The notes below the pieces were generated by a model. That model was not told the DNA's origin, made no database searches, and saw only the letters and a program-made list of their open reading frames with translations. The position numbers and the translations under genes are program-made. From sequence record MN158212.1: 44,592 nucleotides of DNA, one strand, 5' to 3'. Below, one piece after another: positions 41-36,491 of the stretch. How positions within the stretch are numbered: the first letter of the stretch is position 1; each line of letters opens with the position of its first letter. This stretch comes from Escherichia phage BEK1-1.

Positions 41-68
41 AAAGCCCCGAAAGGGGCTTTATCTTTTA
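41..68. terminator. hairpin plus T-run downstream of ssb
   Basis: AAAGCCCC-GAAA-GGGGCTTT followed by ATCTTTTATC on the plus strand. Confidence 0.5.
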
Positions 69-494
69 TCAGAATGGGATGTCGTCCTCGAAGTTCTGTT
101 GCTGCTGAAGTTGCTGTTGCCGCTGAGGTTGCTGTTGCTGTTGCTGCGGCTGTTGCTGCTTCTGCGGTGCTGAATCACCGCGCTGACTAAACTCAAGTCG
201 CGGATTGTTCATGTTAATGGTTACGTAAGTCTTACCATCTTTATCCCTAACATCTACAGCCAGGCTTTCAGCGCTAACACTAACAACTTTACCTTCTTGA
301 AATGCATCATTGTACCAATCTAACATAGATTCTTTAGCGAATAAGACGGCACGATAATTTGTGTACTGTGATTGACCATCTTTATCTTTGTATCGCTCAC
401 TCAAATCAACTGCGAACATTTTCCAGTTACCATTAGCGTTTACGCCTTCTTTGGTGAATGGAGCGCGGCGAATGTGACCAGTAATTACGTGCAT
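69..494 (-). CDS. ssb: single-stranded DNA-binding protein
   Basis: 141 aa; OB-fold-like N-terminal part, Gln-rich linker, C-terminal acidic tip ...EDDIPF as in bacterial SSB (DDDIPF); RBS-like GAGAGA upstream. Confidence 0.85.
   Translation of the reverse strand: MHVITGHIRRAPFTKEGVNANGNWKMFAVDLSERYKDKDGQSQYTNYRAVLFAKESMLDWYNDAFQEGKVVSVSAESLAVDVRDKDGKTYVTINMNNPRLEFSQRGDSAPQKQQQPQQQQQQPQRQQQLQQQQNFEDDIPF
94..166 (-). repeat. imperfect CTG/TTG-rich (coding-strand CAG/CAA) simple repeat encoding the poly-Gln linker of SSB
   Basis: Direct reading: gctgttgctgttgctgcggctgttgctgcttctg; translates to QQQPQQQQQQPQRQQQLQQQQ. Confidence 0.8.
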
Positions 495-535: not shown

Positions 536-1186
536 TTAGAATGTGTCGATTTGTCTTGATTCTACTTCAATCTTTTCTTCAGGACTACTTTTTTCTGCAA
601 CTTTCTTTGGTGTTGCTGGGTTGAAGCCATTCGCTGCATTTGCTTCAATCTCTGCCTTTCGCTCTATGATGTGGGGTTCGAAAACCTTCCATCCTGCTGC
701 ATCAAGTGACTGCTTAGCCTCCTTCCAGACATTGCGAAGCTCATCAAGAGTATTGCATTTCTCTAGCTCTCGCTTAAAGTCCTTAACACCTTTCGCTGCC
801 AGATTACCATCATCATCTGCCTGGCTAAGTCCTAACGCCGCTGTGATTCCGTAACGTCGAGCGTATGTTAAAGCTGAGCCGTAACCTTGTGCATCATTCT
901 TACTGATTGGTACGATCATCAAGAAGCTAACCCACTCTCCAGATTCAGCATGAAACAGTTTTGTCTCAACCTTCATGCGATTGGTTTGTTCATCATCAAG
1001 TACACTCTGGAACATAACAATCCCACACTCATCTAAACCAGGCTCAACGGCCGCCAAAACGTCTTCTAGGGTAGCGTACTTGTTCTTTAAGTGTGAGTTC
1101 TGCTTAGACTTTTCAGCCTTCGCAAATAGCGATTTGGCAGTGTGCAGCGCGTTTAAAATTGATTTGCATGATTCTGAAATTTGCAT
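536..1186 (-). CDS. ERF-family single-strand annealing protein (probable)
   Basis: Track ORF 536..1228; start moved to internal ATG (MQISESC...) preceded by GAGG, since the upstream codons overlap the promoter -10; motif GSALTYARRYGI; lies between ssb and the exonuclease. Confidence 0.5.
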   Translation of the reverse strand: MQISESCKSILNALHTAKSLFAKAEKSKQNSHLKNKYATLEDVLAAVEPGLDECGIVMFQSVLDDEQTNRMKVETKLFHAESGEWVSFLMIVPISKNDAQGYGSALTYARRYGITAALGLSQADDDGNLAAKGVKDFKRELEKCNTLDELRNVWKEAKQSLDAAGWKVFEPHIIERKAEIEANAANGFNPATPKKVAEKSSPEEKIEVESRQIDTF

Positions 1187-1262
1187 ATTTAACCTCGTTC
1201 GTCGTTGATGGGGGTAATCATACTCCACCTTTTAATTTTTTATTTAGCAATTTGTGCTATTT
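1187..1262 (-). promoter_or_regulatory. box promoter (AAATAGCACAAATTGCTAAA, 20 nt, TATGAT, leader ACCCCCATC...) upstream of the annealase gene
   Basis: Direct reading of the reverse complement; same architecture as the other copies. Confidence 0.5.
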
Positions 1263-2226
1263 AAATTTCTTTATACTTCCTCATATCCCACTCAGGAACA
1301 TCTAAGTCGATCTCTGTTGCGCCCATTGCATACCCTGGCCACACGTCATTCTCTTTACACTTCTTGTAAGTGGCAAGCGCCTCTAGATACATTCTGCGGC
1401 CAACCTTCAGTTGCTCTTCTGTAATATTGTAAAGCATTGGTAGGTAAGGCTCCTCTTTCTCGATTGCAAGTAGCCTTACTTTTGTTTTTCTTTTTTCATT
1501 AAAAGCCCTAACAAAAACATCGTGCTGTAGCGCCATTTTTGCAAGATAACCATGCTTGAATGCAAGCCTCCCAAACTCATGAGGTGATGCGCTGGCTGTC
1601 GTCTTCAGGTCGGTAATGCATACCATACCATCAACAACATCGACATGGTCAATTCGGATCTTAACGCCAACGCCAAGAATCTCACCGAAGATAGATAATT
1701 CCTTCTGCGCCGTCTCGCTATTAACGATTGCATTATATGCAGGAATATTGCAAAGAACCTCACGCATCGCGACAACTTTGTCATAGTCTGCTGCGCTAAC
1801 TAGCTCCTTGCCCTCTACAAGAGCCTGTGCGCTCTCCTGCTGCTCAATTAGCCATTTAACAGGCCAATCCTCACCAGATCGATACATCATCTCTACGAGC
1901 TCGCTATAACCCTTCCCGGAAGTGCCAGCCACGCCAACTTTTTTAAGTGCTGAAGCTAAACCTGCCTGGCTTGTAATTAAGCCTTCAATCGCGTCAAGGT
2001 CTGTAGCTCGAAGGTATTCTTTATCGAATACATCTTGCTCCAAAATCATCGTGTGGCTTAGTGTGCCGAACTTAAGCGCCTTGCTATCATTATTTCGCTG
2101 CTTAAATTTCCACTTCGCTGGTGATCCTTGGATAATCTCGACAAGTGAAGAGCCTGAGATGTGGTCAGTTTCAGCGTGGTAAGCCTCGTTGCTTAGTTCT
2201 TCTCGTGTGTAAACTCTGAAAGTCAT
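1261..2226 (-). CDS. PD-(D/E)XK family recombination exonuclease (YqaJ/RecE-like)
   Basis: 321 aa; ...IDHVDVVDGMVCITDLKTT... fits D...(D/E)xK; synteny with annealase and SSB. Confidence 0.55.
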   Translation of the reverse strand: MTFRVYTREELSNEAYHAETDHISGSSLVEIIQGSPAKWKFKQRNNDSKALKFGTLSHTMILEQDVFDKEYLRATDLDAIEGLITSQAGLASALKKVGVAGTSGKGYSELVEMMYRSGEDWPVKWLIEQQESAQALVEGKELVSAADYDKVVAMREVLCNIPAYNAIVNSETAQKELSIFGEILGVGVKIRIDHVDVVDGMVCITDLKTTASASPHEFGRLAFKHGYLAKMALQHDVFVRAFNEKRKTKVRLLAIEKEEPYLPMLYNITEEQLKVGRRMYLEALATYKKCKENDVWPGYAMGATEIDLDVPEWDMRKYKEI

Positions 2227-24860: not shown

Positions 24861-24938
24861 TGGCGCTCCGCACTGGATTCGAACCAGTAACCTACGACTT
24901 AGAAGGTCGTTGCTACTATCCTATTGAGCTAGCAGAGC
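24861..24938 (-). tRNA. tRNA-Arg (anticodon UCU)
   Basis: Minus strand reads GCTCTGC...TAGCTCAATAGGATAG...ACGACCTTCTAAGTCGT...CTGGTTCGAATCCAG...GCGGAGC-G-CCA; acceptor stem pairs 7/7 (one G-U); anticodon loop CT-TCT-AA; T-loop GGTTCGAATCC. Confidence 0.85.
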
Positions 24939-35293: not shown

Positions 35294-35339
35294 ATAATAG
35301 CCGCTTTCGCGGCTACTGTTTTAACAAAAGGTGCTATTA
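35294..35339 (-). promoter_or_regulatory. box promoter, variant, with hairpin TAGCCGC-GAAA-GCGGCTA inside the 20-nt spacer
   Basis: Direct reading; the hairpin may also terminate transcripts from the upstream phosphoesterase gene. Confidence 0.4.
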
Positions 35340-36491
35340 GTATTTGGATCCAGGGTTTGCGTCACGAAGCATTTCAACAGGAATGCTCACTCGACTAACT
35401 TCTCCATACTTCTTGTGATACGTAATAACGTTTGCACTACGCCCAGAGAAGTACCCGCCCTTGGATGAGTACTCATCTTTTGCAGCAAGTGTCTGGTGTT
35501 GCTCAATAATCATCAAGCTAGTTTCCTTAACCGCTCTGTGGTGCAGGTGGCCTAGGTGCGTGTATGCGAACTTGGATTTACCAAACATCTCACGATACTT
35601 AGCAATTATTGCTGATTCAACTCTGGAGAAGTTAGCGCAATGCCCGTGATGCATGGCAATCATAACGTCTCCAAATTCATATGCGTAGTAAGGGGAAACT
35701 TCGCGATTCACTTCAACTCGCTCATTTTCAATAAATACTTCATGAAACATCTCGCGCAACCATAATGAAGATACCGGGTTGTGATTTCCCTCACAAATCA
35801 ATAGCTTAACCTTTTTATGTTTAACCAGGCACATGCTTATGGCTGCCTTGATTAATTTAATCTGAGTCCGAATCATTCGGAATAATCTAGTATCAGCAGA
35901 AAGAATGTGACCACTCATTGGGGTTACAGCTTTCATTGAGTCGTAGTGAGCCTCATCCCCTAAAAAGTTAATTATGCATTCATCGCTGTTCGGGCTCATT
36001 GCCACGGCGCTGCTGAACCAGTCCAATGCTAATTTCTCAGCAATCTTGGTGTCATAATTGTCACCACCTTCCTCTGCGCAAGCAAGCATTCCAATGTGAT
36101 GGTCTGTGATGGTGTAGAGGTTGAGAATGTCAGAATTAGTTATCTCACCTGAGTGGTTAACAGCATCGTACTTAGGTAGCTCTTTCTTAAGCTCCTCAAC
36201 AACAATTTGCATCAGCTCTTGCTGTCGCTCCTTGTCAACTTCTGATTTAACCCACTGACCTTTAATCTCACCATCGGCACCAATTAAGCTAGACACACCT
36301 TTGACAGCGTAACCTTGAGGAATTAGGTTGCTTACATCACGGCCGTGCCCCTCACCCCGTTTTGCCAGCTTACTACGACGCAATTCAACGTTGCGAATGT
36401 TCATTCCGTACTTCTCTGCGATTGCCTTGTTGGTCATTCCATTCGCCAGCTCTTCGCGTAGTTGTTCGTTGGTGATTTTTGCAGTTGCCAT
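35337..36491 (-). CDS. calcineurin-like metallophosphoesterase with N-terminal helix-turn-helix domain
   Basis: N-terminal ...MTNKAIAEKYGMNIRNVELRR... (HTH-like); phosphoesterase-like motifs ...ITDHHIG..., ...GDEAH..., ...EGNHN..., ...MHHGH..., ...GHLHH... Confidence 0.55.
   Translation of the reverse strand: MATAKITNEQLREELANGMTNKAIAEKYGMNIRNVELRRSKLAKRGEGHGRDVSNLIPQGYAVKGVSSLIGADGEIKGQWVKSEVDKERQQELMQIVVEELKKELPKYDAVNHSGEITNSDILNLYTITDHHIGMLACAEEGGDNYDTKIAEKLALDWFSSAVAMSPNSDECIINFLGDEAHYDSMKAVTPMSGHILSADTRLFRMIRTQIKLIKAAISMCLVKHKKVKLLICEGNHNPVSSLWLREMFHEVFIENERVEVNREVSPYYAYEFGDVMIAMHHGHCANFSRVESAIIAKYREMFGKSKFAYTHLGHLHHRAVKETSLMIIEQHQTLAAKDEYSSKGGYFSGRSANVITYHKKYGEVSRVSIPVEMLRDANPGSKY

Follow-up and report, generated by a model that had tools for sequence, protein, structure and literature searches.

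A glutamine-rich in-frame repeat encodes the length-variable linker of a probable single-stranded DNA-binding protein in Escherichia phage BEK1-1 and its relatives

The ssb locus of phage BEK1-1

Here we describe the glutamine-rich tract near the C-terminus of the protein encoded by the open reading frame (ORF) 69..494 of Escherichia phage BEK1-1 (MN158212.1), in the whole stretch of 44,592 nucleotides that was analysed, hereafter called the window. By its sequence, the protein is a divergent SSB (single-stranded DNA-binding protein) of the bacterial type, and the tract very probably constitutes its disordered linker, encoded by an in-frame repeat and drifting in length between about 17 and 36 residues under compositional constraint. 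The gene and its parts are as follows, in amino acid residues (aa) and nucleotides (nt).

69..494, minus strand: ssb gene, an ORF of 141 aa plus the stop codon (69..71)
180..494, minus strand: N-terminal DNA-binding (OB-like) domain, residues 1–105, ending in the invariant FSQR
93..179, minus strand: predicted disordered linker, residues 106–134 (29 aa), GDSAP QKQQQ PQQQQQQ PQRQQQ LQQQQ N
96..164, minus strand: Gln-rich in-frame tandem repeat, Q111–Q133, four imperfect 18-nt units with alternating CAG and CAA
129..146, minus strand: perfect (CAGCAA)3, Q117–Q122, 18 nt, the longest perfect repeat of the tract
108..110, minus strand: CTT (Leu129), at the place where most relatives have a CCT proline, six residues ahead of the tip
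72..92, minus strand: acidic C-terminal tip FEDDIPF, F135–F141, sharing six of its seven residues with FDDDIPF, the tip of E. coli SSB

The product of 69..494 matches QGH77181.1 exactly, a BEK1-1 entry labelled “hypothetical protein”. PHROG_44 (“single strand DNA binding protein”) covers the whole 141-aa protein with E = 7.5e-30, and the orthologues in Rtp, C119, Rogue1, Stevie, and others carry an SSB annotation. When a profile of diverse family members was aligned with E. coli SSB by hhalign, residues 27–54 fell onto residues 33–63 with a probability of 93.6% (E = 2e-7). This segment is the β2–β3 hairpin, which reads …YRAVLFAK in the phage protein and …HRVVLFGK in the E. coli protein. TIGR00621 matched with E = 0.0026, under the family cut-off. 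The Pfam search matched no family, including PF00436, for which the phage OB domain is too divergent from the E. coli type, and the PDB sequence search gave no meaningful match with either the single protein or the profile. The AlphaFold2 model has low confidence (mean pLDDT of 58), and the fold searches with it found no informative match for the OB fold. The model nevertheless arranges the N-terminal part in the β-β-β-α-β-β order of an OB fold, with pLDDT of about 70, while the last 37 residues (105–141), with pLDDT below 50, are predicted to be disordered. We infer that the N-terminal domain adopts an OB fold, and the protein would be expected to bind single-stranded DNA (ssDNA) and to recruit partners through its tip.

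The first-pass annotation, made from the letters of the window alone, had named the protein an SSB, and this is borne out by the PHROG_44 and hhalign matches, the FEDDIPF tip, and the disordered C-terminal segment. The label “hypothetical”, which the protein carries in BEK1-1 and many phages related to it, can thus be replaced by the name SSB with a host-type tip. The closest deposited relatives belong to the family Drexlerviridae, subfamily Braunvirinae (Veterinaerplatzvirus, Rtp, DTL, and Sd1), with 80–95% nucleotide identity.

The C-terminus of the protein reads ...FSQRGDSAPQKQQQPQQQQQQPQRQQQLQQQQNFEDDIPF, followed by the stop codon. FEDDIPF is directly followed by the stop, which leaves the free terminal Phe required in the tip of a bacterial-type SSB. 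Within the tract Q111–Q133, 18 of the 23 residues are Gln, whereas Gln makes up 3.8% of the remaining long ORFs (binomial P = 6e-22), and the runner-up 23-aa stretch among the ORFs of at least 50 codons contains seven. The first-pass annotation had placed the linker at 94–166, at most 2 nt away from the whole tract at 96..164, and the nearly pure Gln peptide that it quoted is correct, corresponding to residues 113–133 (96..158). The tract lies between the predicted DNA-binding part and the acidic tip; the predicted disorder begins at residue 105, and the tip occupies F135–F141.

Architecture of the repeat

The tract codons are CCG CAG AAG CAG CAA CAG / CCG CAG CAA CAG CAA CAG CAA / CCT CAG CGG CAA CAG CAA / CTT CAG CAG CAA CAG, in which CAG and CAA are interrupted by CCG or CCT (Pro), AAG (Lys), CGG (Arg), and CTT (Leu). 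Each of the four units of about 18 nt encodes P-Q-x-Q-Q-Q (PQxQQQ). Tandem Repeats Finder detected the region 90..164 with a period of 18 (4.0 copies, 81% matches, score of 86), and additionally with periods of 6 and 12. It is the sole tandem repeat scoring at least 50 in the 44.6-kb window, and 96..164 was also recovered as a direct-repeat family. Two short ORFs that overlap with it, at 74..190 (plus strand) and 59..196 (minus strand), are by-products of the repeat.

The synonymous codons alternate strongly. Only 1 of the 12 adjacent Gln pairs uses the same codon twice, as compared to 6.0 expected under random synonymous placement (P = 0.002), and the longest same-codon run in the tract is 2. 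The registers usable for slippage are therefore 6 and 18 nt, and the effective repeat units in the window phage are 6 nt and 18 nt, not 3 nt. The description of the tract as an imperfect trinucleotide repeat is literally right, as CAG and CAA with interruptions, and needs refinement only in the operative units.

This strong alternation belongs to the clade of the window phage, not to the whole family. Pure runs occur in other clades, such as (CAG)6 in Rtp and (CAG)5 in locus L032. Across 32 distinct linkers, same-codon adjacency amounts to 151 pairs versus 173 ± 9 expected, which is mildly low in a set of related sequences. Synonymous alternation as a family-wide rule was rejected on the basis of this count and of the pure (CAG)5–6 runs in some clades.

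Variation in linker length among relatives

We compared the protein with its relatives, a set of 140 distinct full-length sequences. Two scans of IMG/VR and one of a metagenome collection yielded 8 loci per scan, and most of the close-relative DNA came from exact-protein look-ups. In 139 of the 140 relatives, the segment ending in FSQR measures 105 aa. In contrast to this fixed length, the linker is 17–36 aa long and occurs as 122 distinct sequences, far from the invariance that would have spoken against a variable tract. In the full-length proteins with a normal C-terminus, the length differences consist of whole codons inside the linker. Every difference is a multiple of 3 nt, so the reading frame is kept, as the first-pass annotation had anticipated, and on/off switching by frameshift was not seen.

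Linker diversity is high even among close relatives. In the 90%-identity cluster of the window protein (40 members), the 15 listed members span 129–145 aa, and 11 different linkers were found on one identical OB protein sequence. The linker length differs in 77% of the pairs with identical OB parts versus about 89% of the more divergent pairs, fractions that are inflated because the collection holds distinct sequences only. The deposited isolate genomes (Rtp, DTL, Sd1, Msk, C119, Rogue1, and BEK2/3/6) cover the same length range.

A single sequence departs from this pattern. The protein P0144 (cluster 4, 127 aa) leaves the Gln tract early and ends with …QQQQHQVCIINE, the sole such case among 144 sequences. 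Its end may stem from a change in the repeat that broke the frame, or it may be an artefact at the end of a contig.

Composition of the linker and conservation of the tip

The linker cores of the family comprise 3322 residues, with 74% Gln, 8% Pro, 5% Arg, 4% Lys, 3.5% Asn, and 2% His. Glu occurs only 3 times, Leu 7 times, and Asp not at all, although Glu and Leu are one substitution away from CAA or CAG. The net charge is +1 to +5 in all linkers, and in 99 of 120 the final Pro sits exactly six residues ahead of the tip. The window phage lacks this usual proline and has Leu129 instead, with CTT in place of CCT, and thus carries one of the rare Leu residues of the family. Q-rich linkers are also present in further Drexlerviridae groups—the Rogunavirinae, the Tempevirinae, and the genus Nouzillyvirus. 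The constraint is on the kind of residues in the linker and not on its length, which is consistent with a flexible tether that depends on its bulk chemistry.

Studies of bacterial SSBs provide a frame for these features. Bacterial SSB linkers are poorly conserved, are 16–126 residues long, and contain few charges (PMC7145534). In E. coli SSB, a shorter linker leads to more tip exposure and more competition between the tip and the OB domain (PMC12143593, PMC7145534), and the linker is needed for cooperativity and condensation. Amide-rich, non-anionic SSB tails support cooperativity and condensation, while an anionic tail abolishes both, together with the tail–tail interactions (bioRxiv 10.1101/2022.01.17.476650). 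The near-absence of acidic and hydrophobic residues in the phage linkers agrees with the E. coli result that anionic tails block tail–tail interactions. The family constitutes a natural series of linker lengths, combined with a nearly constant DNA-binding domain and tip, and this series could serve to test ideas on tip exposure, cooperativity, and condensation.

In the tip, the residues F135, I139, P140, and F141 are invariant among 83 aligned sequences. In three loci (L037 1600..2080, L038, and L039, corresponding to P0079, P0099, and P0143), an ORF of about 460 nt encoding an HNH-type endonuclease lies within the end of ssb. Its insertion point falls precisely after the final sense codon of ssb, for Phe, and ahead of the usual stop codon with the terminator. 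The interrupted ssb reads on for 15 codons (…DDIPF-ASLGLQYGKHRIYAL), and the C-terminal Phe is thereby buried. The C-terminal Phe of an SSB normally needs its free carboxylate for partner binding. The insertion looks like that of a homing endonuclease aimed at the conserved tip-coding sequence.

Length changes between close pairs

How does the linker change its length? We compared the DNA of seven close pairs drawn from five clades. Each pair differs by exactly one linker indel, with sizes of 3, 3, 6, 18, 18, 30, and 36 nt, and the rest of the aligned 1.1–1.75 kb contains only 1–2-nt indels at intergenic positions and no other coding indel. Loci L032, L034, and L033 carry (CAG)5, (CAG)4, and (CAG)3, respectively, and this is their sole difference within a 98–100% identical block. 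L035 and L036 differ by (CAA)3 versus (CAA)2, in addition to 9 substitutions across 1.8 kb. The 18-nt unit is present in 2 copies in L017, 3 in L019 and L021, and 4 in the window (129, 135, and 141 aa), and the OB-coding DNA of L017 and L019/L021 is at least 98% identical to that of the window. L031 carries a single 30-nt linker insertion. Close relatives, with flanks 98–100% identical around the linker, are thus polymorphic in copy number by whole repeat units.

In their form, the close-pair indels are what slippage or repeat-mediated recombination would be expected to produce. The variation that the first-pass annotation expected from a slippage-prone repeat—a few codons or whole 18-nt units gained or lost in nearly identical DNA—is the variation found. 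In genome comparisons, the linker is a predictable hot spot of in-frame indels, which should not be read as an assembly error.

The rate is about one length event per 0.5–6% of flanking divergence. In an isolate series of one related phage (vB_EcoS, on E. coli DSM 12242), at least 40 records match with equal score and identity over 1.3 kb, and 18 of the listed records of this series have equal match scores over a 480-nt span. Single linker alleles recur unchanged on 10–18 independent contigs (P0080 on 16 and P0124 on 10). The uniform match of the isolate series suggests that linker turnover proceeds slowly, on an evolutionary time scale, with no sign of an instability resembling phase variation in the sequences compared.

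Recombination at the 3′ end of ssb

The loci L032–L034 reveal a further source of variation. Among them, the erf gene and most of the OB-coding DNA share 80–90% identity. A block of 98–100% identity comprises the last 60–90 nt or so of the OB-coding DNA, takes in the linker and the terminator, and covers at least 600 nt of the convergent tail-fibre gene (alignment columns of about 930–1800). The rise in identity comes ahead of the linker, and the high level continues in the tail-fibre gene; therefore, the 3′ end of ssb travels with the host-range module and has been exchanged along with this neighbouring module.

We also considered the repeat itself as the crossover point between the ssb and tail-fibre modules, and rejected this possibility. 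In L032–L034, the identity jump lies 60–90 nt upstream of the linker, in the OB-coding part, and in L030/L031, the identical block reaches far on both sides of the linker.

Proposed course of linker evolution and alternative explanations

SSB tether: The SSB would be the product of the third gene in an exonuclease–Erf–SSB recombination block of a T1/Rtp-like coliphage (Drexlerviridae). Its linker would tether the host-mimicking acidic tip FEDDIPF to the DNA-binding domain, and the tip may recruit host SSB-interacting proteins, phage recombination proteins, or both to the phage ssDNA.

Length drift: We propose that replication slippage, or annealing between repeat copies, adds or removes whole codons in units of 6 and 18 nt; this molecular mechanism is deduced from the form of the indels. 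The gains and losses would be tolerated within bounds, so the linker length would drift, on an evolutionary time scale, within a range of about 17–36 residues.

Selection: Purifying selection would preserve the composition of the linker (Gln-rich, punctuated by Pro, mildly basic, and devoid of acidic or hydrophobic residues), the final unit ahead of the tip, and the tip itself.

Several observations weigh against this simple picture of drift by repeat slippage. Part of the linker diversity stems from recombination rather than from change in place, and unrelated linkers are also found on identical OB proteins. In addition, the relatives share phylogeny, so the linker counts are not independent. 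With codon runs of at most 2 and 18-nt units only 81% alike, the tract of the window phage is a modest substrate for slippage.

Could the linker instead be under diversifying selection, with its length tuned to each host for tip exposure, cooperativity, or condensation, or altered to escape a defence that senses SSBs? The repeat would then be a built-in generator of in-frame variants. The near-complete turnover of linkers, even on identical OB proteins, would be expected in this case, and linker length does alter tip exposure in E. coli SSB. Moreover, several defence systems (Retron-Eco8, Hna, DARNA, and Hachiman) are triggered via phage SSBs. However, the SSBs in the defence papers are gp2.5-like or otherwise unrelated (those of T7, SECphi4, and phage 5A are gp2.5-like, and DARNA also responds to the T5 and T4 SSBs), and the C-terminal part of the SSB was dispensable for sensing where tested. 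A link to SSB-sensing defence by Retron-Eco8, Hna, or DARNA was accordingly set aside as having no direct relevance. The linker variation also shows no directional pattern. Conservation extends to the composition, the net charge, and the PQQQxx unit that comes last, as would be expected under purifying selection on bulk properties with neutral length drift. We therefore regard adaptive turnover as unlikely.

The probability is lower still that the repeat behaves as a contingency locus, which mutates frequently within clonal populations so that each lysate is a mixture of linker lengths. The repeat is the only tandem repeat of the genome, length alleles differ between phages about 98–99% identical in the flanking DNA, and the 129- and 135-aa alleles both come from ERZ272805xx-type assemblies, which may form one series. 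The tract of the window phage, however, is not the long perfect array of a short unit that such loci have, since its 18-nt units are imperfect and its pure runs are short ((CAGCAA)3 at most). The uniformity of the DSM 12242 series, the unchanged recurrence of alleles, and the low rate per flanking divergence also argue for slow change. Least probable of all, and in our opinion hardly credible, is an artefact of sequencing or assembly, in which short reads collapse or expand a low-complexity repeat. Most of the relatives do come from metagenome assemblies (ENA and Logan). Nevertheless, the tract is about 50–110 nt long, shorter than a read, all of the differences are multiples of 3, the same alleles appear in independent samples, and the isolate genomes span the same range. 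In-frame length drift of a compositionally constrained tether thus remains our preferred explanation.

Comparison with known systems

The phage protein and E. coli SSB share a three-part layout of OB domain (predicted in the phage protein), disordered linker, and acidic tip (MDFDDDIPF in E. coli), with six of the last seven residues identical. Both linkers are of low complexity, contain Gln and Pro, and are nearly without acidic residues. The E. coli linker has 56 residues and is Gly-rich, whereas that of the phage has 29 (17–36 in the family), is 74% Gln, and is slightly positive. The ssb of the Citrobacter phage Stevie (L026 615..1040) ends with NEPPMDFDDDIPF, the last 13 residues of E. coli SSB, which suggests that this tail either derives from the host gene or has converged on it.

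The SSBs of the Drexlerviridae (Rtp rtp49, DTL, Sd1, Rogue1, C119, Stevie, and XT34) are orthologues in the same context of exo/single-strand annealing protein–ssb–terminator–tail fibre. All have a Q-rich linker and a DDIPF-type tip, and the sequence and length of the linker are different in each. Among them, the 18-nt PQxQQQ periodicity, with its Pro–Pro spacing, is confined to the clade of the window phage. Bacterial SSB linkers likewise vary in length and sequence (16–126 residues; PMC7145534), with conserved bulk composition and tip. Variable disordered SSB linkers are thus already documented in bacteria, and the present case is an ordinary property of such proteins. Unlike in bacterial SSB linkers in general, the variation here can be followed between very close relatives, down to the gain and loss of repeat units in the DNA.

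With contingency loci and in-frame variable-number repeats, the ssb repeat shares a coding tandem repeat that alters its copy number while the protein is kept. In contrast to contingency loci, it has no long perfect tract, no on/off switch, and no sign of high-frequency change, and it encodes a spacer rather than a surface epitope. T7 gp2.5 is also a phage SSB whose acidic C-terminal tail ends in Phe and mediates protein contacts. Nevertheless, gp2.5 belongs to an unrelated SSB family with another OB fold and lacks a Gln-rich repeat linker, and the partners of its tail are phage proteins, not host proteins.

Genomic context

The ssb gene is the last of a co-oriented block, exo–erf–ssb, in which the exonuclease comes first. 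The other features of the locus are as follows.

1261..2226, minus strand: PD-(D/E)XK exonuclease (DUF3799, exonuclease VIII-like; PF12684 E = 2.5e-23, PHROG_412 E = 1e-98)
536..1186, minus strand: Erf-type single-strand annealing protein, 216 aa from the ATG (PF04404 E = 1.3e-27, PHROG_155)
41..60, no strand assigned: GC-rich hairpin AAAGCCCC-GAAA-GGGGCTTT, with a perfect 8-bp stem flanked by an A run and a T run, 8 nt past the ssb stop codon

The erf gene lies immediately upstream of ssb in the same orientation, and it is also called at 216 aa in the relatives. The hairpin is probably a bidirectional terminator shared with a convergent gene beyond the start of the window. At the equivalent place, “terminator (x2)” is annotated in relatives, and the convergent gene beyond it encodes the tail fibre.

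Eight large ORFs lying outside the presumed structural block were scanned. A primase and a helicase are among them, and none of these eight matched a DNA polymerase family. T1-like phages rely on the host polymerase. This reliance, together with the absence of a polymerase match among the scanned ORFs, would explain the host-type tip of the SSB.

In the replication region, the 384-aa ORF 35337..36491 on the minus strand matched no Pfam family at E ≤ 0.001. The window contains a single tRNA gene, for tRNA-Arg (anticodon TCT), at 24861..24938 on the minus strand, close to the terminase gene. Two deposited records assigned to other hosts, PP134917.1 (Pseudomonas phage PsgS01F) and MG065688.1 (Campylobacter phage A110b), have an ssb region 82–84% identical in DNA, and they are probably T1-like contaminants or phages with mis-assigned hosts.
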